A stretch of 64,000 nt of DNA, from IMG/VR virus record IMGVR_UViG_3300049830_000142, positions 32,001-96,000 of that record, one strand, 5' to 3'. Within the stretch, counting starts at the first letter, position 1. Each line of letters opens with the position of its first letter. Of this stretch, positions 1 to 39,651 are shown in pieces. Origin of the DNA: a virus. Position numbers and translations under genes: made by a program. Below the pieces are notes generated by a model. It made no database searches. It worked only from the letters and a program-made list of their open reading frames with translations, and was not told where the DNA came from.

Positions 1-381
1 TTGTGGTTGTTCTTCGCGCTCATCCATATTCTCAAAGTATTCGAGAAAGATTACCAAATCTCCTCGTTGTGTCCAGTTGTCATTTCTATTGATAACTTGG
101 TAGCGCTTAGTGTTATTGTAAAATTCTTGTAAGAGAGTGCGATCTTCGTCGTCAGCACATGGTTTCAGGAATACACACTTATAGACCTGAGTCTTCTCTT
201 CTGCAACTTGATGCTGCCTAATACCCAGCTGAGTCTCGTAAGCATCTATCATCTTCTCAGGGTCAGTGCCTTTGAAAAGATCTCTGACTACTTCGGCTTC
301 AGTCCTAGGCTTCCATTCTAGTTCACTCAATGAACCAGTTAGCATGAAATTTTCTCTTTGTTTGATGTCTTTTGCTTTCAT
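1..381 (-). CDS. hypothetical protein, 3' end off window (MKAKDIKQRENFML...)
   Basis: Hand-translated: ATG at 381 overlaps the TAA of 381..737 (TAATG); open to position 1. Confidence 0.75.
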   Translation of the reverse strand, partial: MKAKDIKQRENFMLTGSLSELEWKPRTEAEVVRDLFKGTDPEKMIDAYETQLGIRQHQVAEEKTQVYKCVFLKPCADDEDRTLLQEFYNNTKRYQVINRNDNWTQRGDLVIFLEYFENMDEREEQPQ

Positions 382-737
382 TAGAGTGTGTTCGGATGTT
401 CAACCTTACCTTGCAAAGACTTGGCAGCTTCCAAATACTGGTCGCGTTCCCTCTGCTTCTTCAGCTGTTGGTTAGTACTATCCTCGTTAGCTAAGTGCCC
501 GGCATACAAACCTGTACCGGCTAGCATACCTACGCCAGCTAATGAAGCTCCATATGCATTAAAAGTATTCTTCAGAGCATTAGGAATGTTAGTGGTCCAC
601 CATGCTAAGTCAGCAGCGCCGCCAGCAGTCTTTTGAAGCTTACCACCTAAATGGTCTTCAAAGTCAGCCAATGACTTTCCGCTCTTAGCCAACTCAATCA
701 TGAGTGCTGTCTTAACTAGTTGTGCACGATCGTTCAT
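381..737 (-). CDS. K-x-A motif protein with Gly/Ala-rich hydrophobic segment, putative internal head protein
   Basis: LVKTA, LQKTAGG; ASLAGVGMLAGTGLYAG; own promoter. Confidence 0.75.
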   Translation of the reverse strand: MNDRAQLVKTALMIELAKSGKSLADFEDHLGGKLQKTAGGAADLAWWTTNIPNALKNTFNAYGASLAGVGMLAGTGLYAGHLANEDSTNQQLKKQRERDQYLEAAKSLQGKVEHPNTL

Positions 738-771
738 ATTAGTATCTTACCTTAAAATTTGTTTGTGTCAA
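738..771 (-). promoter_or_regulatory. sigma70-like promoter, leaderless
   Basis: TTGACA-N16-TAAGAT-N6-ATG(737). Confidence 0.7.
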
Positions 772-1054
772 TTTGGTAACTCTTTGATTTATCATCATAG
801 TTAGCAAATCTAGGCCTATTGATATAGTCGTAAATCAATACTCCAATACCAAACCCTGCTGCAGACAATAGTGTCTGGGCCATTTTACTTAGCTTAGCAT
901 ATTTGGCTGCCGCCAAACCAAGAGCTGCACCACCTACGCCAGACAAAGCCTTTTCCAACTTTCTTTTATTTTCTTCCTTAGAAAGTTCCTGCTTTTGTGA
1001 GCTACCTAGGCCAGTATCACTGTGCGCTAAGTTGATGATTGATTCAATATCCAT
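752..1054 (-). CDS. small membrane protein with two Gly/Ala-rich helices
   Basis: SGVGGAALGLAAA and LLSAAGFGIGVLIY segments; tightly packed with neighbours. Confidence 0.75.
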   Translation of the reverse strand: MDIESIINLAHSDTGLGSSQKQELSKEENKRKLEKALSGVGGAALGLAAAKYAKLSKMAQTLLSAAGFGIGVLIYDYINRPRFANYDDKSKSYQIDTNKF

Positions 1055-2004
1055 TATTTACCTGGAAACATTACTGCTTCTGGGTTGTTGATAGCTTTAG
1101 GCATTACACTACGACCTAGTACATTCATACCAGCCATTAGTCCGCCTGGCAACAACATCCTTTGCGATAGTTTTCCACCCTCTTCATCTTCCTGAGCATT
1201 CTCTTCAGAAGTGTTGATTAGGTTACGCTTAGCTAAGTGGTATAACCCACCCGCACCAGCACCTACAGCGCCAGCACTAAGCATATTAGATAGACCAGGT
1301 CCTATTGCATTCTTTAGACCACCAGACATTTCACCTGTACCTAAGAATGGTTCTGCTGCATTTGGATTTGCGTCGCCGTATTCAGTCACAGCACCGCCTA
1401 TCCTACCCGGAGCAGTCAATAGTTTACCTGGGGCATTAGCCAACCACTGCGCGCCTTGTCCTAAAGCGTGGTTGGCATTATCGAAAAAACCGTCAGCTTC
1501 CTTACTCATATCTTCCAACTCTTGAAGCATGCCTTCTTTGACACTTTCAATGTTGACGTTGATAGGAGCGTGAGGTTGCTTTAACATCGCCTTTGCTTTC
1601 CTTGGTTTAGGAATAGCCTTCCACTTAGCATCACCTTCGTGCCTTAGTGTATAGGTCGGGTTGTCTCTACCTTCTTGTAGAGTAAAATAAATGCTGCCTG
1701 GGTCAGACCTATGAACCTGAGCCTTACCTCTTGAGCTTGCATTAGTATACATGTCTGGCAATGGCACATCAGGCATCTTTTCTAGCTCAGTATCCATGTC
1801 TTGCAGATTCCCTTTGAAGCTGTAAGTGTTGGTACCATCAGAAAGATGTACATGTCCGTCACCCTTAGCAAAGTGCCAAGTAGACTGTGATGTAGTATGC
1901 GGAAATAAATTTCCGTTCTTCATGTCGAAGATGTTTGCTCCCTGCTTGTGCAGTCTAAGCATATCTTCTACACCCTTTGCAAATTCGTCGAGGTGGAGTT
2001 CCAT
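1054..2004 (-). CDS. K-x-A protein: globular N-domain plus C-terminal Gly-zipper module
   Basis: LHKQG, MSKEA; AGAVGAGAGGLY...RMLLPGGLMAG. Confidence 0.8.
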   Translation of the reverse strand: MELHLDEFAKGVEDMLRLHKQGANIFDMKNGNLFPHTTSQSTWHFAKGDGHVHLSDGTNTYSFKGNLQDMDTELEKMPDVPLPDMYTNASSRGKAQVHRSDPGSIYFTLQEGRDNPTYTLRHEGDAKWKAIPKPRKAKAMLKQPHAPINVNIESVKEGMLQELEDMSKEADGFFDNANHALGQGAQWLANAPGKLLTAPGRIGGAVTEYGDANPNAAEPFLGTGEMSGGLKNAIGPGLSNMLSAGAVGAGAGGLYHLAKRNLINTSEENAQEDEEGGKLSQRMLLPGGLMAGMNVLGRSVMPKAINNPEAVMFPGK

Positions 2005-2005
2005 A

Positions 2006-2245
2006 TTAAATAGTAGGTGTAAGCTTTGGAGTACTCAAGTCAAGTTGTTGTCCCATCATACCACCAGCACCTGGCATCATCATACCAGTAGGTGCGCCTA
2101 GAGAGTTACCGGGCATAGCTGGTGTCATTGATGGTGCTGAGCCCATTTGTACGGGTGGAGCAGCTTGACTGAATGACGTATTGGGTTGTTGTGAAAAACC
2201 CATAGCATTAGCTTCCTTCAAAATTTGTGATAAATAGAGCTTCAT
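2006..2245 (-). CDS. short Met/Pro/Gly-rich low-complexity protein
   Basis: ILKEA then M/P/G/Q-rich tract; fills the gap between neighbours exactly. Confidence 0.7.
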   Translation of the reverse strand: MKLYLSQILKEANAMGFSQQPNTSFSQAAPPVQMGSAPSMTPAMPGNSLGAPTGMMMPGAGGMMGQQLDLSTPKLTPTI

Positions 2246-2246
2246 A

Positions 2247-2957
2247 TTACTTAGGCATTTGTGGTGGTTTTACTACAGGGCCTGTTGGTGGGTTAGCAAC
2301 TGGAGCTACAGGAGGTTCAACATGTGGAGGAGGCTCAACTGGAGCAGCACCTGGAGCTGGGCTTGCAGAGGTCGGAGCCGGTTCTGCTTTAGGAGGTGTT
2401 CCACCCGCAGGCTTGTTAAACTGACTCATGAAGTTTTGGTTAGTTCCCATAGCACCTAGACCGGCACCACCTAAACCACCAAGCATCATACCCATCATAG
2501 GGTGTTTCATTAGAGCACCGAGCAATAGCCCAATCAATCCACCACCTACACCACCAGTAGCCATGCCGGACAAAGCGTTCGGATTGGATTTTAAGTAACC
2601 GGAAATACCTTCAGGCATCCACTTCTGCCCTTGTAGCCAATTCTGTGCTTCACCCATACCGCCACCAGTCATACCACTCATATAACTGTTAATGCCACCA
2701 AGCAAACCTTCAGCACCAGCCTTCTTATAGAGTTGGTCACGCATCTGGGATAGACGAATCAATTCCATCGCTACTTTAGTTTTGTAGAGAGGATCCTTAG
2801 ATTCTTCGGCTAACTCATCCCAAGCCGCTGCCCATTTCTCAACGATGTCATCCGCCTCTTTAATGTAGCCCCTCAAAAATGGAATATCGCAGCCGTGTTC
2901 AGCTGCTACTTTAAGGAAGCCTTCCTCAAATTGAATGTACTCTGCTGTCTTGATCAT
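2247..2957 (-). CDS. K-x-A leader protein with Gly zipper and Pro-rich tail
   Basis: FEEGFLKVAA leader; GGVGGGLIGLLLG...MLGGLGGAGLG; PAPGAAPVEPPP tail. Confidence 0.8.
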   Translation of the reverse strand: MIKTAEYIQFEEGFLKVAAEHGCDIPFLRGYIKEADDIVEKWAAAWDELAEESKDPLYKTKVAMELIRLSQMRDQLYKKAGAEGLLGGINSYMSGMTGGGMGEAQNWLQGQKWMPEGISGYLKSNPNALSGMATGGVGGGLIGLLLGALMKHPMMGMMLGGLGGAGLGAMGTNQNFMSQFNKPAGGTPPKAEPAPTSASPAPGAAPVEPPPHVEPPVAPVANPPTGPVVKPPQMPK

Positions 2958-2992
2958 AGTTATATGTTATCTTAAATTATTCTTGCTGCCTA
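2958..2992 (-). promoter_or_regulatory. sigma70-like promoter, leaderless
   Basis: TAGGCA-N17-TAACAT-N6-ATG(2957). Confidence 0.55.
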
Positions 2993-2999
2993 GCTTAAA

Positions 3000-4085
3000 T
3001 TAGTTCCAACCCATGGTGTCGTAAATACCAGGTATTTCTTGCGTAGGTGCTGGTTTAGGCTCCTGGTAAACAGGTTCCTTGATCCCTAGCTCTTTGATCT
3101 TAGCCATGTATTCTTGGTAAGCTCGGTCATTCAGATGCTTGTAGACTGGAGTAGCTAGATCACCAGCACCTGCATTGTTTTTCCAGAAATGAGTGTTACC
3201 ACCTAAAGCAGCCCAACCTGAAGGACTAGTCATAGCTTGCTGAGCTTGAGCGCCAGTATTACTTCTATACCAGCTATACAAATTGTCTAGGCTAGAGTTA
3301 CGAGTCTCAGGATTCATACTCTTGATACCTTCCCTGTTATTCTCTAACCAAGCTGCGTTACCACCGGATTCGTTTACAAAGTCTTGTGCACTTTGAGTTC
3401 CGTGGTTAAGTGCAACCTGACCTGCGGTACCCACGGCTGTTGCTGCTAAAGCTGGACCACCTAACAACATACTTGCCGCTCTACCTCCAACCACTTCAGG
3501 AGCGGCGGTAGCGGCTCCTCTTAACAGACTCTTTCCTAAGATAGGATTACTTGCTGCTGAGGTTAGACCTTTCTGCAACATGTTTTTACCTAGCGTAGGA
3601 ACAGAGCCGAGGAGTTGAGAACCTGAGTCAAGAGCACCACCACCAAATTGTAAAGCTTTGTAACCAGCACCTGCCTGGTTATTAGGATCAAGGGCATCTG
3701 ACATCATGCTTAATCCATTTACTCCTAACATACCACGGTTTAGCCAAGGAGCGACTTTAGAGACACCTGGTAAAGCTTTCATAGAGTTAGCCGCTGCCCA
3801 AGGAACCATTAGCTTCTCTGCACCTTGGTTAGCAAGCTGTGTAGTCTTACCCATAACTGAGTCGGATGGGGCTTCACTGAAATCTGTAGGCTTAGGATCG
3901 TAAGGAGCTTTTGGCATTCCTTTGTTAGCCATAGCATTCAAACCATAACCAGCTAAGCCCAGACCACCAGCCATAGCACCCATTCCTAACGGAGTGGAGT
4001 ACCATGGTTTCTTTTTTTGGGGTTCTACGTTTGCCTGTTTATTCAGCTCAAACAATATACCTTGGTAGAAAGCCGTGTTATTCAT
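3000..4085 (-). CDS. Gly/Ala-rich K-x-A protein, putative ejection/internal protein
   Basis: AFYQGILFELNKQA leader; several Gly/Ala-rich hydrophobic segments. Confidence 0.8.
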   Translation of the reverse strand: MNNTAFYQGILFELNKQANVEPQKKKPWYSTPLGMGAMAGGLGLAGYGLNAMANKGMPKAPYDPKPTDFSEAPSDSVMGKTTQLANQGAEKLMVPWAAANSMKALPGVSKVAPWLNRGMLGVNGLSMMSDALDPNNQAGAGYKALQFGGGALDSGSQLLGSVPTLGKNMLQKGLTSAASNPILGKSLLRGAATAAPEVVGGRAASMLLGGPALAATAVGTAGQVALNHGTQSAQDFVNESGGNAAWLENNREGIKSMNPETRNSSLDNLYSWYRSNTGAQAQQAMTSPSGWAALGGNTHFWKNNAGAGDLATPVYKHLNDRAYQEYMAKIKELGIKEPVYQEPKPAPTQEIPGIYDTMGWN

Positions 4086-4891
4086 GAACGCAATACGTGT
4101 AATGCAACTGCTGACTTAAGCTCTTTATACTTAGTTTCTAGCTCTGGTGGCAAGTTATCAGCGAATTGGATTAGTTCCTTGATTCGATAGTACCATCTGT
4201 CGCCAAGCATAGCTCTTAACGTCATTCTAAAGGTTTCGTCACTTAATTGCAAGCCCTCAACTATCTTCTTTAATCTACGTCTATAACTGTTGGTGTACTG
4301 ATCTATTGTCATACATTTGCCTTGAGTCGGTAATTTCCAGGAATAGAAGAAACGGATATACTTATCTCTGGCTTGTCTAGATAATGGGATATTGCCGATC
4401 AAGTAGTACATATAGGCGTCTTGAGTCTTACGTACTGGTGTCATGAAGATTCGTCCTAAGCCCAGTTCTTCTCCGATAGCCATAAGCTGCTCATTAGATG
4501 TACGCCAAGATTCAGGCAAGGAGTCTTCGTACTTAGCTTTGTATTGTCGGTGGAAGTCGAGGTCAGCTCTCTTCTTAGTTTTGCAATATAACTTGTAATA
4601 GAACTCAGATTGGTCAAAGGCTATCCAATCGAAGGACAAGCTCATCTCAGGCATTTCTACGGCTACGTGAGCGTGCATCTTTCCTTCATCGGCTCTAGTC
4701 ACGACATATACGCCTTTAGGATATAGCAGCTTCAATGTTGAATGTAACTTTGTGATCTTATCACCAAACGCTTTGCTGTCGTAACTTTCCTTTCTAACAG
4801 CCGTGATTAGTATATCACCGATCTGGGCTGGACAGGAAAGTCCCGTGAAGGCTGTTTTTAATTTTTCGACATACTCTTTCCTGTTGTACAT
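4082..4891 (-). CDS. divergent HUH endonuclease (rolling-circle Rep-like)
   Basis: GKMHAHVAV (HUH motif II) after YVVTR; GLGRIFMTPVRKTQDAYMYYL resembles the motif III region. Confidence 0.6.
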   Translation of the reverse strand: MYNRKEYVEKLKTAFTGLSCPAQIGDILITAVRKESYDSKAFGDKITKLHSTLKLLYPKGVYVVTRADEGKMHAHVAVEMPEMSLSFDWIAFDQSEFYYKLYCKTKKRADLDFHRQYKAKYEDSLPESWRTSNEQLMAIGEELGLGRIFMTPVRKTQDAYMYYLIGNIPLSRQARDKYIRFFYSWKLPTQGKCMTIDQYTNSYRRRLKKIVEGLQLSDETFRMTLRAMLGDRWYYRIKELIQFADNLPPELETKYKELKSAVALHVLRS

Positions 4892-25188: not shown

Positions 25189-25223
25189 TTGCCTTACGTT
25201 CCATTATAATTTACTATTAGCAT
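25189..25223 (+). promoter_or_regulatory. sigma70-like promoter, leaderless
   Basis: TTGCCT-N17-TACTAT-N6-ATG(25224). Confidence 0.65.
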
Positions 25224-27470: not shown

Positions 27471-27473
27471 TTT

Positions 27474-27776: not shown

Positions 27777-27785
27777 TGAAAAATT

Positions 27786-28862: not shown

Positions 28863-28872
28863 CCTTAATGAA

Positions 28873-28901
28873 TTGACTAGGATAGTCAGACATATTAACA
28901 T
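28873..28901 (+). promoter_or_regulatory. sigma70-like promoter
   Basis: TTGACT-N17-TAACAT. Confidence 0.55.
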
Positions 28902-28921
28902 AGTAGTAATAAATACATTTT

Positions 28922-30310: not shown

Positions 30311-30312
30311 TT

Positions 30313-30678
30313 ATGGCAAAGCTACGTATTTTACAGACAATAGTTAACGAGAACTTTAACTTCGTCTTTACTATCGACACTGATAGCATTGGCGATGATG
30401 ACTTTGCTCGTGTAAAGAAGTTTGGTGCACCTAGTATTAACTTTGGCGGTGCCTTCACTAACGGTACTCAGTCATATACTTTGCCTGATGCGTTCTACGA
30501 TTTCCCTGGTGACTTCCCTGTAAATGTATCATTCTCAGGTACTACACCATTTAACACTGCGGTAGAAGCTAACCTAGATTTGTACAGGACAACGATGACA
30601 ACTAGAATCACTACTGCTATCACTACACTAAGAGGTTTGTCAGATGGCTTCACTGGTGAATTTATTACCAATATTTAA
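30313..30678 (+). CDS. hypothetical protein, probably structural
   Basis: Thr/Phe-rich beta-type ORF in head region. Confidence 0.75.
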   Translation: MAKLRILQTIVNENFNFVFTIDTDSIGDDDFARVKKFGAPSINFGGAFTNGTQSYTLPDAFYDFPGDFPVNVSFSGTTPFNTAVEANLDLYRTTMTTRITTAITTLRGLSDGFTGEFITNI

Positions 30679-30680
30679 TT

Positions 30681-31322
30681 ATGCCAATGGATCAATCAAC
30701 ACAACATTTACTAAGTGGCTTACTAACTGACGCTGGCATTGGTGCTGGTGTAGGTGCGGCAGGTATGGGTGCTGCTGAAGCACTTTCACCTGAACAAGAA
30801 GGTCACAAGAAGAGCATTCTAAAAAGCATGCTATTAGGTGGTGCAATGGGAGGTCTTACTGGTGCTGGTACAAGAGCTTTTGCCGATACTGTAAGCCCCG
30901 ATCTTCAACACGATCCTCGTACTATGCTAGCTTCAATGTTTGAAAACAAACAGGCTCCTGCTCCAGAAGAACACAGTATCATCGGTAACCTAGGTAATGC
31001 GGCAGCTGGACATCCGGCTATTGCAGGTTTAACTGGTGGTGTATTAGGCGGTGGTCTATCTGCTTATCGTAAGAGCGGTATTAACAAAGAAATGGTTGCA
31101 GGTGGTCAGGTGCCTAAGAGTTTACAAGACTACATCAACACTCCAAGAGGTTTACGCTTAGGGCGTTTCCCAACTATGCATCCAGCATCTCACGGTGCTT
31201 TAGCAGGTGTAGGTACTTATGCTGTAAGCAAGCTTCTAAACCAGAATGAAGTAAACAAAGATTTGTACAGCAAGGTAAACAATCCTAATGCTTTGAGTGA
31301 ACACCTCAGTCAACCACAGTAA
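30681..31322 (+). CDS. Gly-zipper hairpin membrane protein
   Basis: GIGAGVGAAG..EQEGHKKSILKSMLLGGAMGG. Confidence 0.8.
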   Translation: MPMDQSTQHLLSGLLTDAGIGAGVGAAGMGAAEALSPEQEGHKKSILKSMLLGGAMGGLTGAGTRAFADTVSPDLQHDPRTMLASMFENKQAPAPEEHSIIGNLGNAAAGHPAIAGLTGGVLGGGLSAYRKSGINKEMVAGGQVPKSLQDYINTPRGLRLGRFPTMHPASHGALAGVGTYAVSKLLNQNEVNKDLYSKVNNPNALSEHLSQPQ

Positions 31323-31325
31323 CCT

Positions 31326-32687
31326 ATGATAAAGTTCACCAGCAACAACGACTGGGTATTCAATTGTGAGAGCGTAGCAATACTGCGTGATTTCTCCCGT
31401 GACCTAGTTAAAAGGGCCAGTGCTAAGAATCTTGCGAACTACGAAAAAGATCCTAAGCAAGAGCACCTTCACATTATTGCTGTAGGAGCTTACGAAGGAA
31501 CTGGTTTCAACCGTAATGGTGACGCTTTCCTAGAAGAGGACTGCAAAAAGAACCATCACTATTTTTCTAAGAGTAACAGAGCTGTCCATCGCCACCACAA
31601 GAACAAGCCTAACGATCCTAAGTATGGTAATATCAAAGCTGCATCATACAACGATAAGATGCGCAGAATTGAGTTAGTTGTAGGATTGGACAAAGGCGCT
31701 TGCGCAGACATTTTACATGAGCAGGAGACGACTGGTAACACTAACTGGTCTATGGCTTCTAAGCAAGCCGAAGACATCTGTTCATGGTGTGGTCATCATG
31801 CCAAGACTGACAATGACCGTTGTAACCACTTGCCTACTAACATAGGTGAGTTGAATAAGAAGGGTGAGATGTGCGGTATGATCAATCCAGACCCTAGGTG
31901 GTTTGAGATTAGTTATGTGCGCAGACCTGCTGACAGAATTGGTATGAGCTTAGGAAAGGTAGCTTCTGAGATCACTTACAAGTCAGCCGCTTCTTATCTT
32001 AACATCTATGGTGATCTTTATATCCCGGACGATGTACTACTAAGCAAGAAAGCTAGTGACAAACGTGAGCTTTTGAGCAAGCTAGCTGAGATAGAAAAGC
32101 ATATTGATGCAATATCTCATAGCAATCCAGACAACTCTAAAGATAAGTTCATCAAAGATCATGGACACAAGATTAAGCATTCTCCTAATATTGCTCCTGA
32201 CAATATTGAGTCCCTCAGAACGATGGAGCCTAGCATGGTCCTTAAGACACTTGCTGACCATGGTATCGTATTCAGCCCAGAAGATTTTAGCCGTTACCTG
32301 TTCGACAACCAAGTAAAGCCTGGTCATGTAGAAGGTATGAAGAGTCACTTACCACACATCTTCAATCATCTACATAACGAAGACGCTGGCAAAGCAGTGA
32401 ACGATGAGAAGTTTGATCCTGGAGCCGGTACTCCTCCAGCTGAACTAAAGAACTTGGGCGGCAAACTACATGAAGGACATTCTTTACATGAAGGACCTGC
32501 TATTAGACGTGTCATGCACATTGGTGGAGGTAGTCTATCTCCTCATCACGAAGCAACTAAACAAGCAGCTGACCTAGAATTTGCTAAGCAGTACGCTACA
32601 TATAAGTTGGCTGCCCTTAGCTATATGAACGAACAGGGTAAGCTAACTGATGATGTAATCTTAAACGCAGTATTGCAGAACCAGTAA
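31326..32687 (+). CDS. prohead maturation protease with C-terminal extension
   Basis: FNRNGDAF, HRHHKN, WSMAS, CSWC...CNH, FEISYVRRPAD; upstream of scaffold/capsid. Confidence 0.75.
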   Translation: MIKFTSNNDWVFNCESVAILRDFSRDLVKRASAKNLANYEKDPKQEHLHIIAVGAYEGTGFNRNGDAFLEEDCKKNHHYFSKSNRAVHRHHKNKPNDPKYGNIKAASYNDKMRRIELVVGLDKGACADILHEQETTGNTNWSMASKQAEDICSWCGHHAKTDNDRCNHLPTNIGELNKKGEMCGMINPDPRWFEISYVRRPADRIGMSLGKVASEITYKSAASYLNIYGDLYIPDDVLLSKKASDKRELLSKLAEIEKHIDAISHSNPDNSKDKFIKDHGHKIKHSPNIAPDNIESLRTMEPSMVLKTLADHGIVFSPEDFSRYLFDNQVKPGHVEGMKSHLPHIFNHLHNEDAGKAVNDEKFDPGAGTPPAELKNLGGKLHEGHSLHEGPAIRRVMHIGGGSLSPHHEATKQAADLEFAKQYATYKLAALSYMNEQGKLTDDVILNAVLQNQ

Positions 32688-32688
32688 T

Positions 32689-33102
32689 ATGACACGCACT
32701 TATCAGACGATGAACCTAAACAACATAACCGAAAAGTTAGAGTTAGCTGAGATGGTTCAAAATAATGCGTTACTCGCTTCTAGCGCTGGTATTTGGCAAC
32801 TTAATCTAACTACTGACAATGTAATCTGGGATAACCGAATGCTTGAGATCTTTGAGTTTGACGAAGATTATTTCAAAAACAGTTATCACGGTTTTGAGGA
32901 ACTAATTTTACCTGAATATCATGAAGAGATTAGAGCTAAGTTATTGGCATGTCAAACCGGTATTGCTCCATTTTGCTCAGTCTATAAAGTAAAGTCAAAG
33001 AACTCCAAAGGTTACAAGACTGTTTTAGGTAAGGGCAATATTGTAATAGAAGAAGATGAGACTAGGATGATGCACGGTATCTGTGTCGAAATCTTGGAAT
33101 AA
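32689..33102 (+). CDS. stand-alone PAS domain protein (PAS_3-like)
   Basis: SAGIWQLNLTTDNVIWDNRMLEIF...LILPEY...YKVK...YKTVLGKG...MHGICVEI. Confidence 0.8.
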   Translation: MTRTYQTMNLNNITEKLELAEMVQNNALLASSAGIWQLNLTTDNVIWDNRMLEIFEFDEDYFKNSYHGFEELILPEYHEEIRAKLLACQTGIAPFCSVYKVKSKNSKGYKTVLGKGNIVIEEDETRMMHGICVEILE

Positions 33103-33106
33103 TTTT

Positions 33107-33355
33107 ATGCTTAAGTCAACTATGAGAGTGTTGCGTAGGTATCCGTTAGTTACTGCGGTACTAGACTATTTTCTTGCTAAACTGCAAGTCATTATCATTT
33201 CAGTTGTAGTGGCTCTCATTACCTTAGTCTATCAGCATCACGCTACACATAACCAGATCTGGAATGAGACTGGTAATCATTTTCAAGACTTAGTAAAGAT
33301 CGTTCAGCAACAGGATTTGGTAATCAAAGAGCTAACGAATAACATATATGAATAA
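33107..33355 (+). CDS. single-pass membrane/coiled-coil protein, holin-like candidate
   Basis: LQVIIISVVVALITLVY then amphipathic coil; ATG at 33107 preferred over GTG 33083. Confidence 0.6.
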   Translation: MLKSTMRVLRRYPLVTAVLDYFLAKLQVIIISVVVALITLVYQHHATHNQIWNETGNHFQDLVKIVQQQDLVIKELTNNIYE

Positions 33356-33770
33356 GGAAGCATTTGATCGTGGCTTTGTTAAAGCTGCTCTCGATAACGG
33401 CATAAATATTTTGCAGGCCACTGAACTACTAAAGTTAGCAGACGGCAATCAAGCGTTGATGACAGGTATTGGTGGATTAGCCGGTGGCTTAGGCGGAGGC
33501 CTAGGAGGTGCACTAAAAGGTTTTGGAATGGGTGCGCCAATAGGTGCTATTTATGGTGGACTGCGTGAGCATGAAAAACCTGAAAATCAGAGGCATACGG
33601 TTAAGGCTATGTTAGATAAAGGATTACTTGGTGGTAGCTTAGGAGCAGGCGCAGGTGGATTAGTCGGCGGAGGTATGGGAGCTATAGGTGGTGCAGCTGC
33701 TGGTTACAATATGGGAAACTTTCAGCAGACACTCGAACAGCTAGGACAATTACCTGTGTTAAATAAATAA
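33348..33770 (+). CDS. KAA-leader Gly-zipper protein
   Basis: AFDRGFVKAA; long GxxxG repeats. Confidence 0.8.
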   Translation: MNKEAFDRGFVKAALDNGINILQATELLKLADGNQALMTGIGGLAGGLGGGLGGALKGFGMGAPIGAIYGGLREHEKPENQRHTVKAMLDKGLLGGSLGAGAGGLVGGGMGAIGGAAAGYNMGNFQQTLEQLGQLPVLNK

Positions 33771-33772
33771 TT

Positions 33773-34441
33773 ATGTCAGAACTGAAATGTAAAAAGTTTG
33801 AATGCTTAGAGTGTAAAAAATCTTTTCAAAAGATAGATTATTTAGGAACGGTGAAATACTGTTCTAGACTTTGTGGTAATATAGCTAAAGCAAAAAATCG
33901 TAATAAAAAAGCTACTGTAAAATGCAAAGAATGCCGCAAACCATTTTTAGCTCAAGAAGGTAGGCTTAAGAGTGGAAAAGGTAAGTTTTGTTCCACCGGA
34001 TGTTTTAGGACATACCAAAATAAAAAGGTACAGTTGCAATGTAAGAATTGCGATAAACTTTACAAAAGAAGTCCTAGTATATCTAAGGTATCTAGATTCT
34101 GCTGTCGTAGGTGCTGTACAATTTATACGCTTAAGAGCATGCCGAACAAAGAAACATCCATAGAAATTAAGATAAGAAAATTTCTAGATGAATCAAAGAT
34201 ACCGTATAAAGCACAGGTAGGTATAGGTAATATCACTGTAGCAGATTTTGTTTCTGGTAAAAATGTTTTTATGGCAGATGGAGACTATTGGCATAATTTA
34301 CCTAGGCGTCAATACCGTGATAAAAAAATCAATGACAAACTAACTAAATTAGGTTATTCTGTACATAGATTTTGGGAACACGACATACATAACAATTTTG
34401 ATCAAGTTAAGGAAAGGATAATGCATGCCAGCTGTCAGTAA
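33773..34441 (+). CDS. Vsr/DUF559-like endonuclease with N-terminal Cys repeats, homing-endonuclease-like
   Basis: Repeated CxxC...CSxxC; ADF..DGDYWH..RDKKIND..GYSVHRFWEHDI; AT-rich. Confidence 0.8.
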   Translation: MSELKCKKFECLECKKSFQKIDYLGTVKYCSRLCGNIAKAKNRNKKATVKCKECRKPFLAQEGRLKSGKGKFCSTGCFRTYQNKKVQLQCKNCDKLYKRSPSISKVSRFCCRRCCTIYTLKSMPNKETSIEIKIRKFLDESKIPYKAQVGIGNITVADFVSGKNVFMADGDYWHNLPRRQYRDKKINDKLTKLGYSVHRFWEHDIHNNFDQVKERIMHASCQ

Positions 34442-35324
34442 AAGTCAACAAAGGTTATTCGGCATGATTCATGCATATCAAACCGGTAAACTAAAAAAGG
34501 CTCCTTCTAAGATCAAGCATGTCGCATCGAATATTTCTATGACAAGCGCAACACATTTTGCAGAGACTAAGCATAAGGGCTTACGTAATAAAGTGAAGAA
34601 GATCGCAAACAATATGGATTTGGTACTAAATCATCCTAGTGCACCAAAATTATCTAAACGCAGACATAACATGTTAAATGACTATGGTAGATATCTTAAC
34701 GGCGAACTAGAAAATGATCCTACAGAAAAAAAGGCAGGTTGGTACGAAGACTTCCGTAGAAACGAAGTTAACCATGTAGTTGGCCACTACTCTCCTAAAG
34801 AATTAAAAGACATGAAAGGACTTGACGTTAAGCATGGTAGTCATCCGGACGAAGCCGAAGACAAACAATTAATTAAGGAAGTTGTGAAACCATCAGCAAT
34901 TAAGAAACAAGCATTTGAAAGAGGATTCATCAAAGCAGCCACTGACTTAGGTGTTAATCCATTACTAGCAGTAAATTTATTGAAGAAGGCATGGAACCTA
35001 CCCGAAGCCGCAAGCGATATAACAGGCATTGCAGATCCAGCTAAACTACAAGCACTTGAAATAGGTGCTGCAGGTCAAGCTGTGGGCGGTGCAGGTTTAG
35101 GTGGACTAGCTGGTGCAGGTTTAGGTGGACTAGCTGGTTACTTTGGCGGTCGCAATAAAGAACATCCGGAACAAGATCATTCAATGCGCGATATGCTATT
35201 GGGCGGTCTAGGTGGTGCCGGTCTTGGTGCGGCTGGTGGTGGACTGTATGGAGGAATGCACGGTGCTAAGCCTTTGCAGGAGTACATTCAAAGTCATCCA
35301 CGCATTATGGATCCACAACAGTAA
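34425..35324 (+). CDS. mosaic K-x-A protein: MPAxSKxQQ domain, acidic linker, KAA/Gly-zipper module
   Basis: MPAVSKSQQRLFG; KQAFERGFIKAA; GGLAGAGLGG..RDMLLGGLGGAG. Confidence 0.8.
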   Translation: MPAVSKSQQRLFGMIHAYQTGKLKKAPSKIKHVASNISMTSATHFAETKHKGLRNKVKKIANNMDLVLNHPSAPKLSKRRHNMLNDYGRYLNGELENDPTEKKAGWYEDFRRNEVNHVVGHYSPKELKDMKGLDVKHGSHPDEAEDKQLIKEVVKPSAIKKQAFERGFIKAATDLGVNPLLAVNLLKKAWNLPEAASDITGIADPAKLQALEIGAAGQAVGGAGLGGLAGAGLGGLAGYFGGRNKEHPEQDHSMRDMLLGGLGGAGLGAAGGGLYGGMHGAKPLQEYIQSHPRIMDPQQ

Positions 35325-35332
35325 AATAACTG

Positions 35333-35373
35333 TTTACAACACTTAGGAAACTCAGTAATATTATAACAACGAC
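35333..35373 (+). promoter_or_regulatory. promoter of scaffold/capsid operon
   Basis: TTTACA-N17-TAATAT; CAGTAATAT...AACGAC shared with sheath promoter. Confidence 0.65.
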
Positions 35374-35387
35374 CAACGGATTAATTT

Positions 35388-36218
35388 ATGAACGAACTTT
35401 ACGCACAAGCATTTGTTAAGCAAGCTACAGCTAATGGTCTTCCACAACAGAAGATCGCAGCTATTCTAAGCCGCGCAGAACAAATTGCACAAAGACAGAC
35501 TAAGACTGCTTCAGTTAAGTCAAACCAAAATTTTGACTTAGTTACCAGCCTTCTAAAAGCAGCAGGTATGGAGAAGAACGCTTCTTCAATCAGCTTTACA
35601 CACGGCATCCTTAATGAAGCTTTCATGAACGGTGCTAATCTTAACGAAGCTGTTCAGTTTACCAAAACAGCTCTAGACGCATCTGCAAAGCGCGTACAAT
35701 TTATGCAGAAGGTTGCGGCAATCGCAAACCATCCTACGCTCAGCCAATGGGCTGAAGGTTTTCTCGGCAGTGCAAAACTAGCCGGCATGACACAGGATGA
35801 CGCAGTAGCTCTCATGGTTGACCTCGTCGACAAAGAGAAGCGTGCTGGCGGTGATGACGCAATGTTCAAGCAACCTACTGATGGCGCTCCGGCTCCGGAA
35901 AGTGATCCAGCAGCAGGCGCACCTCCAATGGGCGGCGCAGGTGGTCCTCCTCCAGGAGATCCATCGGGTGGTCAAGGCCAGCCTGGCGGCGGTGATCCTC
36001 AGATCGCTCAAATTTTACAAGAACTCCAGAGCTTGCCTCCGGAAGTTCAGCAACAAGTTATCCAACAGCTTTTATCAGCCATAGGCGGCGGCCAAGGCGG
36101 ACCAGGACCAGCAGGAGCACCTCCGATGGGTGGTCCCGCAGGCGCACCTCCTCCAGGAGCTCCTCCGATGGGTGGCCCAGGTGGCCCACCTCCAGCCGGC
36201 CCTCAAGGTCCTGCCTAA
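35388..36218 (+). CDS. K-x-A-rich protein with Pro/Gly low-complexity tail
   Basis: KQA, KTAS, KNAS, KVAA, KLAG, KRAG; GAPPMGG x3. Confidence 0.8.
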   Translation: MNELYAQAFVKQATANGLPQQKIAAILSRAEQIAQRQTKTASVKSNQNFDLVTSLLKAAGMEKNASSISFTHGILNEAFMNGANLNEAVQFTKTALDASAKRVQFMQKVAAIANHPTLSQWAEGFLGSAKLAGMTQDDAVALMVDLVDKEKRAGGDDAMFKQPTDGAPAPESDPAAGAPPMGGAGGPPPGDPSGGQGQPGGGDPQIAQILQELQSLPPEVQQQVIQQLLSAIGGGQGGPGPAGAPPMGGPAGAPPPGAPPMGGPGGPPPAGPQGPA

Positions 36219-36253
36219 TGATAAATATTAACAAATAACCATCAAATAACTAT

Positions 36254-37432
36254 ATGGGAAAGATCACTAAACACGCCGAATTTATGGAGACACTCCAGAC
36301 TATGATTAGCAAAGAAGCTTCAGGCCCGGCTAAGTCTACTGGTGCAGCAGATGTCACTGGTAAACCCGGCGCTGACACACACTATCAATCAGTACCGAAA
36401 GAGACTGAGCACGTTGACAAGAATAAAGAAGGTCATCCTGAACACAACCCTCAAGAATTTAAGCAAGAGAAGGGCCATAAGGAAGGCGACATTACTGGCA
36501 AGGGTGGCAAGACTGCTGAGGCAACTAAAGAAGCCGCAGCTGTTACTCCTCCTGACACCAAAGCTCCTGCCGCAGCTAAGGAAGATAGTTCAACTACTAT
36601 CTCTCAAACTGAACAGAAGAAGATGGCGTCAGCCGAAGCTCCTGCTCACGAGAAGCTCGCACAACTAGGCGAACAACTATTGGCAGCTATTAGCGAGATG
36701 CAGAAGTCCGCTTCTGGTCCTGCTAAGTCCACTGGTGCCGCAGACGTCACTGGTAAGCCTGGTGCTGATACTCACTACCAATCTGTTTCTAAGGAACACG
36801 AGAAGGTTGACAAGAACAAAGAAGGCAAGCCTGAAAATAATCCTCAAGAATTCAAGCAAGAAAAGGGTCACAAAGAAAAAGATATCACTGGTAAGGGTGG
36901 TAAGACTGCTGAAGAACTTGAACTTGACAAGGAAGCTAGCTTTGCACTTGGTCGCGAATTTGCTCGCTCATACTTGAGCAAGACTGCGTCTGTAGAAGCT
37001 CCTATCTATAAGGAAGCTGGTCGTCGTGACTTCGAGGCTCTGATCGCTCAAGCATCAGCTGAACTTGATACTGAAGGTAAGTCTAAGCAAGCCCAAATTT
37101 CTAAACAAGCTGCTGTTGAAGACGAATCACTTCAGATTAAGCAAGCTGAGGAAGCTGGCGCTCAGTACTTCCAACAGTTGCTAAAGCAAGCTCAGGCAGA
37201 AGAACAGGCAAACTTGGTTAAGTCCGCTTTCGAACAGAAAGTAGCTCAGATCAACGCTGCTAAGGAAGCCGCAGAAAAGAAGGCTAACGAACTTACTGCT
37301 AAGATCGCAGCTTACGAAACTGAAAAAGAAAAAGTAGCTGAAGAAGCTAAGTTGGACGCTAAACTCGCTCAATGGGGTAGGTTCGTCGTAGAAGACGTTA
37401 TCACTCGCCTCAAGAATGAGCCTGTTAAGTAA
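36254..37432 (+). CDS. prohead scaffolding protein
   Basis: Charged, Ala/Glu/Lys-rich coiled coil upstream of capsid; internal 70-aa duplication. Confidence 0.7.
   Translation: MGKITKHAEFMETLQTMISKEASGPAKSTGAADVTGKPGADTHYQSVPKETEHVDKNKEGHPEHNPQEFKQEKGHKEGDITGKGGKTAEATKEAAAVTPPDTKAPAAAKEDSSTTISQTEQKKMASAEAPAHEKLAQLGEQLLAAISEMQKSASGPAKSTGAADVTGKPGADTHYQSVSKEHEKVDKNKEGKPENNPQEFKQEKGHKEKDITGKGGKTAEELELDKEASFALGREFARSYLSKTASVEAPIYKEAGRRDFEALIAQASAELDTEGKSKQAQISKQAAVEDESLQIKQAEEAGAQYFQQLLKQAQAEEQANLVKSAFEQKVAQINAAKEAAEKKANELTAKIAAYETEKEKVAEEAKLDAKLAQWGRFVVEDVITRLKNEPVK
36311..36913 (+). repeat. 210-bp in-frame direct repeat (36311-36520 and 36704-36913)
   Basis: 63/70 identical residues, many synonymous differences. 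Confidence 0.95.
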
Positions 37433-37589
37433 ATTACAAGGTAGATTACACGGTAAGCCGGAAGATTCGAAACCTTCCGGCGAACCAAAGACTGTAAGCT
37501 CTTTAGAGAGCCTACCTGAGGACGAGCAACTGAAGGTTCTCGATTACCTGAACACAGTCAAAGATTTACATAAAGAACATGGACAATAA
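37416..37589 (+). CDS. 57-aa hypothetical protein (not in ORF track)
   Basis: MSLLSKLQGR...LPEDEQLKVLDYLNTVKDLHKEHGQ*; overlaps both neighbours. Confidence 0.6.
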   Translation: MSLLSKLQGRLHGKPEDSKPSGEPKTVSSLESLPEDEQLKVLDYLNTVKDLHKEHGQ

Positions 37590-37974
37590 ATTCTTGCATC
37601 AAGCAGCGATGTTCGTTAAACTAGCAATAGAAGTTAACGAGGATCTGCAAGATAAGCTCTTGACGAAAGTCAAAGAAGCAACCGTTCGTGAGTTAGACAA
37701 GGAGAAATACCGTGTCGCACTAACTAAAGCTGCAGACGCTCTTTATGATTCGGATTTCCTAACGGACGAACACGAAAAAAGAACTTTTCTAAGGAAGGCA
37801 GCAGAAGACCCAGTCTATGTGTTGCGTACATTAGAAAAAGTTTGCGAGGCGGCAGACGTTGCCCAGATCGGCAAGCCTGCGCGAGTAGCAGCCAGACCCA
37901 AGGAAGCAGAGTACGATCCAGTTTATGAAGCTGCATTCGGATTTTCCGGAAGCAGAGGTATCGTAGACGAATAA
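37579..37974 (+). CDS. hypothetical head-region protein
   Basis: FVKLA, VKEA, RKAA; helical. Confidence 0.75.
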   Translation: MDNKFLHQAAMFVKLAIEVNEDLQDKLLTKVKEATVRELDKEKYRVALTKAADALYDSDFLTDEHEKRTFLRKAAEDPVYVLRTLEKVCEAADVAQIGKPARVAARPKEAEYDPVYEAAFGFSGSRGIVDE

Positions 37975-38002
37975 CTCTAATAACAACAAATTAAGGACAA
38001 AT

Positions 38003-38671
38003 ATGATTAACGTAAAGAAAGGACCAGCTCACTCACTAGGTCAGTCAGACCTAAGAGGTGCTATCACTTCCAATACTGGTACTGTTATCGCTGGTGCTCT
38101 ATGCTACTTGGCAAACGGTACTACTTATAACAGCATTACTCCAGCAGCCGGCTCAGTTGCCTTGGCTGGTGGTGCTGCCGCAGTATCTGCAACCCAAGGT
38201 TGCCCAGGTATTCGTGGATTCGCAATCAATAGCATCACCGATGGTGACGTAATTGAAAGCGGTAAACTCGCTCTATACCTACTCGATGGTCAGTCAATCA
38301 TCGAAACAGATCAGGTAGACTATACTGGTGACAGCGGCACACTTACTGCCACTACATATCCAATTGGTACACCTCTTTACCAAAGCCAGACCGCTGCAGG
38401 TAAAGTATCTAAACTAACATCAGGCACACCTGGTCCAGTTATTGGATACGTCGAAGGTATTCGCTACTTGCAACTTTCACAGCCCGGCGCTACGAATGCA
38501 AGTGCAGGTACCCAAAGCTATACATCCGCAACTGAAGCTGCAGCTTACAACGCTGCTAACGCTTCTGGTGCAACTAACTTCCCAGTTTACACAGCAACCA
38601 CTGGTACTGCGTCATTCAAGCCGCAAACCAACGTCGCTGTTCTAGCCATCAAGTTGGCTTCAGGTAACTAA
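38003..38671 (+). CDS. capsid decoration/cement protein
   Basis: Directly upstream of capsid; small-residue-rich beta protein; TAAGGA SD-like site. Confidence 0.6.
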   Translation: MINVKKGPAHSLGQSDLRGAITSNTGTVIAGALCYLANGTTYNSITPAAGSVALAGGAAAVSATQGCPGIRGFAINSITDGDVIESGKLALYLLDGQSIIETDQVDYTGDSGTLTATTYPIGTPLYQSQTAAGKVSKLTSGTPGPVIGYVEGIRYLQLSQPGATNASAGTQSYTSATEAAAYNAANASGATNFPVYTATTGTASFKPQTNVAVLAIKLASGN

Positions 38672-38688
38672 TCTATAAAGGAATAATT

Positions 38689-39651
38689 ATGTCACTAGAA
38701 AAAATCGCAGATATCAAGGTGTTCAATGATACCTTCGTAGATATGTTGGAAGGTGGTAACGAGAAGAAGGCTGCTCAATCAGCTCTAACTTTTACCCGCA
38801 ACAAGCTACGTGAAAACTCATTCTCTGAGAAGATCCTAACTCCTATCGACATCGCTAACGATGAACTCGATAAGAGCGAGAATCCTGAGCTCCATGTTAA
38901 GTGGTGCGACAGGGAACCAGATCAGCCGCCCGCAGTAACTGTGCCTTTGGGTAACGTTCCTGATGGCTACCAGTTCTCTGGTACGCGCTATCCTGTGTAC
39001 TTCTCACGTTTAATGAGCCCAGTATTCCAGAAGGACATCGACAAATTGCGTGGTTACGACTACGACATTCGCCAAATCCTCTTGGAGAACAGCACCAAAG
39101 ACTTGGCTACCGAAGTCGATAGCAAGTTCTTGGAAAAAGTTAACCAGGTTCTCGGTGTTGCTAACACAGCTAACACCTTCACTGCAACCGGTCTTCCTAG
39201 CTACATCACCCTATCCGGTGGTCTAACTCGTACCAACATGGTAGAAGCTGTTAAGGCTTACCAGCGCCTACGCGTTCCGTTTGGTCCGATGCAGCCTGAT
39301 GGTGGTGCAAGCAAGGGTATCATGCTCTTGAACAACGTAACCGCAGCTGACCTACTCAAACTAGAACGTAGCGAAGTCGGTGGTGACGAAGCTCAGAGGG
39401 CTTACCTAGAAGGTACTACTCCAGCCACCGTGCTCGGTCTCAAGTCAATCTTGACCATCAAGCGCGAATTGGTACCGGATGGTACTATCTACTTCTTCTC
39501 TTCTGAGGAGTTCCTAGGTAAGTATTTCCGCCTACAGCCTTTGACTGTATTCATGGAAACTAAGGCGTTCTTCCTACAGTTCTTCCAGTACATGAACATA
39601 GGTATGAGCATCGGTAACCCTAAGGGTGCCTTCCGTGTAGACTTCAACTAA
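38689..39651 (+). CDS. major capsid protein (HK97 fold)
   Basis: KLRENSFSEKIL...REP...DIRQIL..KDLATEVDSKFL; position after scaffold; followed by strong terminator. Confidence 0.8.
   Translation: MSLEKIADIKVFNDTFVDMLEGGNEKKAAQSALTFTRNKLRENSFSEKILTPIDIANDELDKSENPELHVKWCDREPDQPPAVTVPLGNVPDGYQFSGTRYPVYFSRLMSPVFQKDIDKLRGYDYDIRQILLENSTKDLATEVDSKFLEKVNQVLGVANTANTFTATGLPSYITLSGGLTRTNMVEAVKAYQRLRVPFGPMQPDGGASKGIMLLNNVTAADLLKLERSEVGGDEAQRAYLEGTTPATVLGLKSILTIKRELVPDGTIYFFSSEEFLGKYFRLQPLTVFMETKAFFLQFFQYMNIGMSIGNPKGAFRVDFN

Follow-up and report, generated by a model that had tools for sequence, protein, structure and literature searches.

A Lys-any-Ala tag in phage head proteins most likely marks sites of the phage's own T4/herpes-type capsid protease

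Phages such as T4 and phiKZ use a protease to cut many of their head proteins at a short motif, and the window analysed here, a 64,000-nucleotide stretch of the genome of a 135-kb phage, raises the question of whether a recurrent Lys-any-Ala (K-x-A) motif in its head proteins is such a code. Our answer is that this conserved tag most likely marks sites of the phage's own protease, a T4/herpes-type capsid protease encoded in the same head module. ORFs are named below by their position in the window.

K-x-A is enriched in head proteins

We scanned 134.6 kb of genome, with the head blocks defined as window positions -3000..4100 (minus strand) and 15696..39651, and searched the first 35 residues of each ORF for [FLIMV]-x-K-x-[AG]. 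This N-terminal motif was present in 21 of 38 head-block ORFs, with the leader Lys at residues 5-29 and mostly at 9-17, versus 13 of 150 ORFs elsewhere in the genome (Fisher p = 1.9e-9), and in two of the 40 ORFs of the tail block. Leaders are also present in three further ORFs immediately before the start of the window, at genome positions 29367-31991. When all 400 a-x-b residue pairs were ranked in head-block proteins, K-x-A came first with 132 occurrences against 80.9 expected (z 6.7) and L-x-K second (z 6.0), and no K-x-A excess was found outside the head blocks, either in the tail block (z -2.0) or in the rest of the genome (z 0.3). This composition-corrected comparison of head, tail and other proteins, proposed as a check with the initial annotation, shows the motif to be head-specific. 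The motif was defined post hoc, after viewing the data, a concern that is reduced by the all-pairs scan and by replication in outgroups.

Related patterns in head-block proteins lacked an excess. R-x-A occurred 28 times against 28.5 expected, and E-x-A, A-x-K and K-x-S were likewise not enriched; the lack of an excess of R-x-A, which is chemically similar to K-x-A, and of E-x-A makes a general bias from helices or coiled coils less likely. There was also no excess of the glutamyl codes (L-x-E z 0.7, I-x-E 2.0, A-x-E 0.1, S-x-E -0.1, G-x-E -3.4) or of herpes-type [VLI]-x-A (z 0.3, -1.1 and -0.7 for V, L and I). K-x-G was not enriched (57 vs 69.5 expected) and the motif is therefore K-x-A. The initial annotation had described K-x-[A/G] in about 20 head proteins, of which the N-terminal placement and the Ala form hold and the Gly form does not; ORFs 23713 and 1054 carry only this weaker K-x-G form, and ORF 13888, also named as a motif bearer, is a helicase without a leader and has one K-x-A against 3.9 expected. 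We agree with its view that the leader is missing from RNA polymerase and tail genes, in the latter case for the 40-ORF tail block taken as a whole.

In individual proteins, K-x-A exceeded the expectation from composition-preserving shuffles 2.5- to 5-fold in the richest cases, and all six of the richest ORFs (36254, 28922, 31326, 35388, 2247 and 37579) gave p <= 0.006. Conservation in homologue alignments, the other check proposed at the outset, points the same way, with a mean of 0.55 for Lys in K-x-A versus 0.36 for other Lys (p = 3e-4).

The enrichment is repeated in independent lineages. In the head proteins of two cultured distant relatives, Salmonella phage Arash and Vibrio phage D69, which have about 30% identity or less with those here, K-x-A again ranked first (46 vs 21.4 expected, z 6.2, and 51 vs 22.5 expected, z 6.8, respectively), and the excess was absent from the tail modules of both, these being the two tail modules compared. 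K-x-A ranked second in the head module of Bacillus phage G, whose capsid protein has no K-x-A. Across 17 related IMG/VR loci the N-terminal motif was found in 6-11 of 14-25 ORFs, versus 0-6 for the reversed motif, although site counts in these loci are not independent events because of shared ancestry.

A candidate capsid-maturation protease with its own K-x-A sites

ORF 31326 (31326..32687, + strand) is the predicted prohead protease, with a protease domain at residues ~36-205 and a helical C-terminal domain at 244-453. Using VIA-align against 48,161 chains, the top structural match was T4 gp21 (5jbl_A), at Z 8.8, a value that barely exceeds the level that VIA-align calls common, with an rmsd of 3.0 over 126 of 165 residues and a lead of 2.4 Z units over the next row. 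Herpesvirus proteases were also matched (VZV Z 6.4, HCMV 4.6, KSHV 3.2), and Foldseek listed 5jbl and the PRV protease weakly. His91, Ser142 and Glu194, among which the catalytic Ser and His may lie, are invariant in an alignment of 28 homologues. Sequence searches matched no protease family: Pfam gave no match at E <= 1 for any of the 28 family members (S78, U9/S77 and S21 included), a PDB sequence search gave no hit, and hhalign of the family against HK97 gp4 found no similarity (probability 0.1); the sole PHROG match was phrog_2774, of unknown function. The gene lies upstream of the scaffold-like ORF 36254 and the capsid gene 38689, an order shared with Arash, D69 and the IMG/VR loci. Together, the structural model supports a capsid-maturation protease fold of the T4 gp21/herpes assemblin type.

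The protease itself contains ten K-x-A against 3.4 expected from shuffles. One, K29-R-A31 (31410..31418, + strand; context L-V-K-R-A-S), is a predicted N-terminal propeptide boundary: K29 is invariant among the 28 homologues, in which L27 and A31 each reach at least 90% conservation, the site is retained as LTKQAA in Arash and LEKSAA in D69, and residues 1-35, which hold it, have pLDDT < 50. Three more lie in the linker between the two domains (K211-x-A213, K219-x-A221 and K241-x-A243; 31956..32054, + strand) and are predicted self-processing sites, with K241 and A243 invariant and K211 and A213 at least 90% conserved in the same homologues, and with pLDDT < 50 across residues 201-240. The initial annotation held that this protease cuts after K-x-A; the gp21-like fold and the conserved sites in its own disordered segments speak for this, and the cutting itself we infer.

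Sites in the capsid, scaffold-like and leader-bearing proteins

ORF 38689 (38689..39651, + strand) is the major capsid protein, with an HK97 fold (291 PDB matches by Foldseek at E <= 0.001, including HK97 prohead I/II, phage capsids and encapsulins) and with K5-x-A7 and K26-x-A28 in its N-terminal arm. The latter, K26-K-A28 (38764..38772, + strand), is a predicted maturation cut; K26 and A28 are conserved in all 120 of 120 homologues around a variable residue 27, the site is preceded by an invariant, helix-breaking G23, and it is retained in Arash and D69 at ~30% identity.

The most site-rich protein is the scaffold-like ORF 36254 (36254..37432, + strand), whose role is suggested by gene position and composition and which gave no match in family searches. 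Its 22 K-x-A compare with 8.2 expected (p = 0.002) and are spaced on average about 18 residues apart; with K-x-G included the count is 29. ORF 28922 (28922..30310, + strand), a head-module protein with the leader L-V-K-H-A at residue 9, has 16 against 5.2 expected (p = 0.002), or 19 with K-x-G. Site 20 of ORF 36254 is kept in 15/15 orthologues and sites 217, 226, 253, 311 and 329 in at least 93%, and in ORF 28922 sites 9, 31 and 326 are kept in 16/16, as is K216, with its Ala in 81%; many other sites of both proteins are not conserved in position. ORF 37579 (37579..37974, + strand) encodes a small, helical protein of the head whose leader, F-V-K-L-A, lies at residue 14; it has six K-x-A against 2.0 expected, and at sites 14, 32 and 50 Lys is present in 80-93% and Ala in 100% of 15 orthologues. 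ORF 35388 (35388..36218, + strand), with the leader pattern A-F-V-K-Q-A, has nine against 1.9 expected (p = 0.002). The dense spacing of sites in the scaffold-like proteins is consistent with their use for degradation, by analogy with T4 gp22.

A further set of proteins carries the motif as a leader. Seven N-termini and one internal position show a leader pattern of nine residues, versus 0.65 occurrences expected, and its G-F-h-K-A-A form is common to seven otherwise dissimilar proteins, one of them a lysozyme. The copies differ in synonymous codons, which indicates selection on the protein, and in relatives the leader is found on other, non-orthologous proteins. The internal copy, F-E-R-G-F-I-K-A-A, occupies residues 164-172 (nt 34914-34940) of the two-module ORF 34425 (34425..35324, + strand), with K-Q-A before it, and matches the N-terminus of ORF 33348; residues 1-66 of ORF 34425 match five PHROGs of unknown function. 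ORF 33348 (33348..33770, + strand) is small, carries the leader F-D-R-G-F-V-K-A-A and has a glycine-zipper segment, which Pfam Gly-zipper matches weakly (E = 0.001). ORF 27474 (27474..27776, + strand) is a small P/Q-rich protein with F-L-N-G-F-I-K-A-A, and ORFs 20220 (L-T-K-R-A) and 20853 (Y-I-D-G-F-V-K-A-A) also bear leaders (20220..21479, + strand). The lysozyme, ORF 15696 (15696..16391, - strand), has F-L-T-G-M-I-K-A-A at residues 8-16, with residues 94-200 matching Pfam Phage_lysozyme PF00959 (E = 2.7e-13). On the same strand, ORFs 381, 1054, 2006, 2247 and 3000 (381..4085) have the motif at residues 7-20, in ORF 1054 as K-x-G only, and ORF 2247 contains seven K-x-A against 1.7 expected (p = 0.002). 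ORF 25224 (25224..27470, + strand), a conserved head-module protein of 748 amino acids, has an N-terminal K-x-A-A-[DG]-D, and in 13/14 IMG/VR orthologues K-x-A stands at a fixed distance before a conserved E-x-A-F-F-Q-L-A-Y.

ORF 25224 is related by BLAST to the Arash virion protein gp218, and in Arash virions the motif-bearing gp220-gp223, the K-x-A-rich gp225 and the neighbouring gp224 were detected (PMC10585845). That proteome consists of coverage values without a peptide list, and several motif-bearing proteins reached 100% coverage in a sample that held many non-structural proteins and for which some coverage values look implausible (PMC10585845). The leader-bearing proteins are thus probably packaged, judging only from this impure virion proteome of a distant relative.

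Proposed maturation system, its alternatives and known precedents

In the best reading of these data, the serine protease encoded by ORF 31326, of gp21/assemblin fold, would be built into the prohead and recognise (hydrophobic)-x-Lys-x-Ala-(Ser/Ala/Gly/Glu). It would trim ~26-28 residues off the major capsid protein, cut itself at residue 29 and also within the linker of residues 211-243, where the cuts would release the C-terminal domain, and chop ORFs 36254, 28922, 37579 and 35388 into peptides of ~10-30 residues able to exit the shell. An N-terminal leader of 10-20 residues would be removed from ~15 further proteins, and this leader, in many cases an amphipathic helix that ends in G-F-h-K-A-A, may double as a capsid-targeting sequence that loads dissimilar cargo (the lysozyme, glycine-zipper proteins and P/Q-rich proteins) into the prohead core. 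As to the scissile bond, we lean slightly towards K-x-A| (P3 Lys, P1 Ala) over h-x-K|x-A. P3 and P1 are the main positions recognised by the characterised enzymes compared here, those of T4 and phiKZ/SPN3US and the herpes assemblins.

The motif could instead be a docking signal, an h-x-K-x-A helix that binds scaffold, portal or the inner capsid surface and recruits proteins into the prohead, with processing elsewhere or none. A leader common to dissimilar cargo has the typical look of a targeting signal, the targeting and processing determinants of the T4 capsid-targeting sequence (CTS) are separable (PMC9026906), and the complete coverage of Arash motif-bearing proteins would suit this view (PMC10585845). 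However, docking leaves unexplained the 16-22 copies across scaffold-like proteins, those conserved in disordered linkers of the protease itself and the one at the junction of the capsid N-arm. All these placements have counterparts in known protease substrates of T4 and the phiKZ group, and we regard docking as unlikely.

We give still less weight to the view that no enzyme reads K-x-A and that it merely follows from composition, from helical periodicity or from common descent. The richest proteins are indeed Lys/Ala/Glu-rich and predicted helical, several leaders look homologous, and many scaffold sites shift in position, but the excess over shuffles, the lack of enrichment of R-x-A, E-x-A, A-x-K and K-x-S, the first rank of K-x-A in Arash and D69 despite their low identity, the invariance of capsid K26/A28 around a variable residue and the divergence of leader synonymous sites all count against it. 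Least probable, and by our estimate very much so, is another reader of the motif, for example a protease of the host or an enzyme that modifies lysine or forms cross-links. The link between ORF 31326 and the motif rests on sequence and predicted fold, and a conserved host protease is conceivable even though Arash, D69 and phage G infect different hosts; yet motif and protease family are found together across such dissimilar hosts as Salmonella, Vibrio and a Bacillus-group bacterium, the protease has conserved copies at its own domain boundaries, and the T4, phiKZ/SPN3US and HK97 precedents all use the phage's own prohead protease.

Cleavage by ORF 31326, our preferred reading, has in T4 a precedent that covers every step. 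The T4 prohead core contains the protease gp21, the scaffold gp22 and the internal proteins IPI-III and Alt with a CTS of ten residues; sites are L/I-x-E, gp22 is cut into fragments and the protease processes itself (PMC9026906). Shared with T4 are the protease fold, a site of three residues of which the middle one is free, a multi-site scaffold, a protease with its own sites and short site-ending N-terminal leaders on unrelated cargo. In contrast to T4, the site here is K-x-A, ORF 31326 does not resemble gp21 in sequence, and the putative leader is longer, with a recognisable G-F-h-K-A-A helix. The giant-phage proteases phiKZ gp175 and SPN3US gp245 read S/A/G-x-E and A-x-E, respectively (PMC10052503). 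Resemblances to these phages include a phage-encoded multisubunit RNA polymerase (polymerase subunits were found in Arash virions), a preference for Ser directly after the site and, as predicted here, propeptides on many head and ejection proteins and C-terminal self-processing of the protease. However, their enzymes are glutamyl-specific, and the propeptides predicted here are mostly short, at 10-30 residues.

HK97 gp4 cuts the capsid protein gp5 at K103|S104 (PMC10275583). The sequence there, T-F-N-K|S-L-G, provides a Lys-based precedent among proteases of this class, with h-x-K matching F-N-K, although HK97 lacks a conserved Ala two residues past the Lys and has no known multi-protein cargo code. 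Herpesvirus assemblins have the consensus (V/L/I)-x-A|S. Their fold is in common with that predicted for ORF 31326, and if the cut falls after Ala, both would have P1 Ala followed by a small P1' residue, with Lys rather than an aliphatic residue at P3 here. Non-glutamyl cutting is thus by itself not new (K|S in HK97, A|S in herpesviruses), and in this respect the non-glutamyl specificity first proposed was overstated. On balance, we consider it probable that this phage has a T4-like head-maturation and capsid-loading/targeting system with a different, new site code.

Lys-x-Ala enrichment in the head proteins

The window covers bases 32001-96000 of a single contig of 134,588 bp, from a tailed phage that encodes its own split multisubunit RNA polymerase, with ORF 21801 (ORFs are named by their start in the window) matching Pfam RNA_pol_Rpb1_5 and ORF 16509 matching RNA polymerase beta in PHROGs. 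Megablast against 50,697 phage records gave no close DNA relative of the head region, and neither Pfam nor PHROGs returned anything informative for the main head proteins. The capsid protein (ORF 38689) and the candidate prohead protease (ORF 31326; 31326-32687, plus strand) match proteins of Salmonella phage Arash and Vibrio phages D69, D148 and D181 with ~30-35% identity. ORF 31326 additionally matches gp19 of Bacillus phage G and numerous proteins of cluster-C-like mycobacteriophages. Metagenomic homologues number in the hundreds, on contigs reaching ~290 kb.

The initial annotation had described a recurring K-x-[A/G] motif in the head-region proteins. ORF calling over the entire contig with a 60-aa minimum gave 188 ORFs, which were scored for [FLIMV]-x-K-x-[AG] within residues 1-35, with two head blocks defined as window -3000 to 4100 (minus strand) and 15696 to 39651. 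The motif was present in 21/38 head-block ORFs, compared with 2/40 in the tail block and 11/110 elsewhere (Fisher p = 1.9e-9), with its Lys at residues 5-29 and mostly at 9-17. As the motif had originally been picked by eye, all 400 a-x-b residue pairs were also scanned, and K-x-A ranked first in the head-block proteins (132 vs 80.9 expected, z 6.7), followed by L-x-K (z 6.0), with no K-x-A excess in tail (z -2.0) or other proteins (z 0.3). Recurrence beyond composition was therefore borne out for K-x-A but not for K-x-[A/G], since K-x-G showed no excess in the head-block proteins; nor did R-x-A, E-x-A, A-x-K or K-x-S, which also argues against a general charged-helix property. Likewise, neither the glutamyl motifs of T4 and phiKZ nor the herpes-type [VLI]-x-A motif was enriched there.

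Among individual proteins, K-x-A exceeded shuffled expectation (p <= 0.006 each) in the scaffold-like ORFs 36254 (22 vs 8.2), 28922 (16 vs 5.2), 35388 (9 vs 1.9) and 37579 (6 vs 2.0), and in ORFs 31326 (10 vs 3.4) and 2247 (7 vs 1.7). The list of motif bearers itself needed revision: ORF 13888 is a helicase without a leader (a short N-terminal segment ending in h-x-K-x-A), ORFs 23713 and 1054 do carry a K-x-G form but no K-x-A form in the leader, and three further leader-bearing ORFs lie directly upstream of the window. The helicase (13888-15696, minus strand), the RNA polymerase beta'-like subunit (21801-23711, plus strand) and the neighbouring 490-aa ORF (23713-25185, plus strand) together hold 3 K-x-A vs 13.2 expected (p = 0.0008). 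This depletion was not found in the orthologues from Arash, D69 and IMG/VR contigs, and the idea that packaged enzymes avoid K-x-A was dropped.

Conservation of the motif and a shared leader

The motif is real, conserved and head-specific, and it recurs in related phages. In all-pairs scans of head-module proteins, K-x-A ranked first in Arash (46 vs 21.4, z 6.2) and Vibrio phage D69 (51 vs 22.5, z 6.8) and second in phage G (z 3.8), while in the tail modules compared, those of Arash and D69, it ranked 105 and 399, respectively. At 17 IMG/VR loci retrieved with the protease profile (protease identity 43-62%), 6-11 of 14-25 ORFs carried the N-terminal motif, compared with 0-6 for the reversed motif. 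Homologue alignments also bore out the expected conservation of both residues, with a value of 0.55 for Lys within K-x-A and 0.36 for the remaining Lys of the same proteins (p = 3e-4), and Ala within K-x-A likewise more conserved than other Ala. In the HK97-fold capsid protein, K26 lies at a helix start just past the invariant G23, and K26 and A28 are present in 120/120 homologues, with residue 27 varying between E, K, Q and D; Arash and D69 retain the site as well. Site 20 of ORF 36254, sites 9 and 31 of ORF 28922 and site 14 of ORF 37579 are conserved in essentially all orthologues, and ORF 25224, a 748-aa protein that is possibly the portal and for which an ESM Atlas search yielded no lead, retains K-x-A-A-[DG]-D at a fixed spacing from a conserved block. 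Many other sites of the scaffold-like proteins shift position among orthologues, as expected if site density alone matters there.

In phage G (L029), the gp14 portal N-terminus contains M-A-K-Q-A-A-S and R-K-M-A-S, and gp19 has L-V-K-T-A-A before its core and, within the tail, E-K-V-A-S / L-K-I-A-S; the capsid protein gp27 has I-S-K-A-L only, without K-x-A. The ORF 36254 protein (36254-37432, plus strand) has an internal duplication, in which residues ~20-60 (K-E-A-S-G-P-A-K-S-T-G-A-A-D-V-T-G-K-P-G-A-D-T-H-Y-Q-S-V…) return nearly exactly at ~151-190, and is 392 aa long vs ~300 aa in its orthologues.

A strict nine-residue leader pattern, aromatic-x-x-[GATN]-[FYML]-[ILVM]-K-x-A, is N-terminal in ORFs 2247, 15696, 20853, 27474, 33348 and 35388 and recurs at residue 27 of 2247 and internally at residue 164 of 34425, with 0.65 matches expected from whole-genome shuffling. 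Synonymous codons differ among the copies, which indicates conservation at the protein level and not a DNA repeat. Several leaders open with M-x-K-x-A and K-Q-A precedes the internal copy in ORF 34425, so that the leader behaves as a site-bounded module. Behind it lie a phage lysozyme in ORF 15696 and glycine-zipper or P/Q-rich bodies in ORF 33348 and others, and in the relatives similar leaders sit on other, non-orthologous proteins.

Glycine-zipper or G/A-rich hydrophobic stretches occur at 752-1054 and 3000-4085 (minus strand) and at 30681-31322 and 33348-33770 (plus strand), with a weak Pfam Gly-zipper match in ORF 33348 (E = 0.001), and these small head-block proteins may be membrane-active and ejected. 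Further small ORFs lie between the structural genes, at 39722-40324, 54106-54624, 59220-59900, 61737-62123, 19714-20217 and 33773-34441 (plus strand). A GIY-YIG-like Y-I-I-T-N…V-Y-V-G-S opens the one directly after the capsid gene, and several of these ORFs are rich in Lys and Arg and have an N-K-x-K…Y-R/Y-Y-x-x-N-K pattern in common. These small ORFs look like homing-endonuclease-type insertions.

The candidate protease ORF 31326

ORF 31326 had no match in Pfam, PDB sequences or annotated PHROGs, and its 28-member family was likewise negative against Pfam, a PDB sequence profile and, using hhalign, HK97 gp4. The AlphaFold model built with 28 homologues (mean pLDDT 73) has a protease fold. Foldseek with the full-length model found no match at E <= 0.001, and a clear top hit came only from an exhaustive VIA search of 48,161 chains, in which T4 gp21 ranked first (model residues 31-200; Z 8.8, a moderate value, rmsd 3.0, 126 residues), followed by the VZV, HCMV and KSHV proteases. 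His91, Ser142 and Glu194 are invariant in the 28 homologues and are candidate catalytic residues. The phage G homologue gp19 has been named a head maturation protease (PMC12484599) in a multi-omics study that reports no N-termini.

Conserved K-x-A sites in this protein comprise K29 (invariant) with A31 (at least 90% conserved), K211 with A213 (both at least 90%), and the invariant K241 and A243. Two stretches of the model are disordered, residues 1-35 and 201-240, and it is precisely there that the conserved K-x-A sites lie; a helical C-terminal domain follows the second. This arrangement parallels gp21, gp175 and gp245, for which processing at the N- and C-termini is known or suspected (PMC9026906, PMC10052503).

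The protease domain has a Cys cluster, C-x-x-C … C-x-H (31779-31829, plus strand; residues 152-168), inserted between Ser142 and a W-F-E-I-S strand. C152, C155 and C166 are invariant in the 28 homologues, and the cluster may be a zinc-binding insertion undescribed for gp21 or assemblins. P0088, a 776-aa metagenomic homologue, carries Pfam PF14890, an intein splicing domain, and an intein may therefore interrupt some family members.

A possible maturation scheme and its relation to known systems

The best-supported scheme from these analyses would be T4 head maturation with a new site code (PMC9026906). The ORF 31326 protease would co-assemble into the prohead, process itself, cut back the capsid N-arm and fragment the scaffold-like proteins, for which one site per 18-29 residues would give pieces small enough for escape, while leaders would first target cargo to the core and then be removed. 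The cut could lie at either of two positions. With K-x-A↓, the two strong determinants would occupy P3 and P1, like those of T4, the phiKZ group and herpesviruses, and the Ser/Ala/Gly excess would fall at P1', whereas the alternative h-x-K↓x-A would resemble F-N-K↓S of HK97 (PMC10275583) and the hydrophobic P3 of T4. In flank statistics of 1,399 sites, the residue between K and A is rarely Pro and Ala tends to precede an acidic or small residue, a pattern that favours neither position. In the published virion proteome of Arash, gp218 and gp220-226 were among the 116 annotated phage proteins detected, which include many enzymes; it reports coverage values without peptides, some motif-bearing proteins being at 100%.

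It is a tentative proposal, to which we give slightly less than an even chance, that a prohead protease reading a Lys-x-Ala site (Lys at P3, Ala at P1), together with a portable G-F-h-K-A-A capsid-loading tag, serves a clade of 130-290-kb, mostly uncultured phages, with Arash and Vibrio D69 as cultured members and phage G more distant. The idea is directly testable because Arash and D69 are in culture. Prohead-protease codes have been worked out only for a handful of model phages, namely T4, the phiKZ group, HK97 and P1. In such cases the sequence by itself tells which proteins are processed and packaged, and the T4 leader has also been adapted to load foreign proteins into capsids. For a large environmental clade with head proteins outside annotated families, a Lys-x-Ala code would allow the same reading, making its packaged and ejected proteome, including lysozyme and possibly membrane-active glycine-zipper proteins, readable from sequence, and the G-F-h-K-A-A tag could load foreign proteins too.

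No description of a K-x-A cleavage rule was found in the literature. Herpesvirus proteases cut at A↓S. Published phage codes are E↓S for P1 (PMC9024508), L/I-x-E for T4 (PMC9026906), S/A/G-x-E for the phiKZ group (PMC10052503) and K↓S for HK97 (PMC10275583). The non-glutamyl specificity initially put forward is therefore not itself new given K↓S and A↓S, but the particular K-x-A code and the shared leader are. Such a code would mean that diversification of the gp21/assemblin fold has reached the reading of a basic P3 or P1 residue. Most likely, K-x-A represents a new site code within the familiar maturation and loading system, and so varies a well-understood mechanism without being a new principle.
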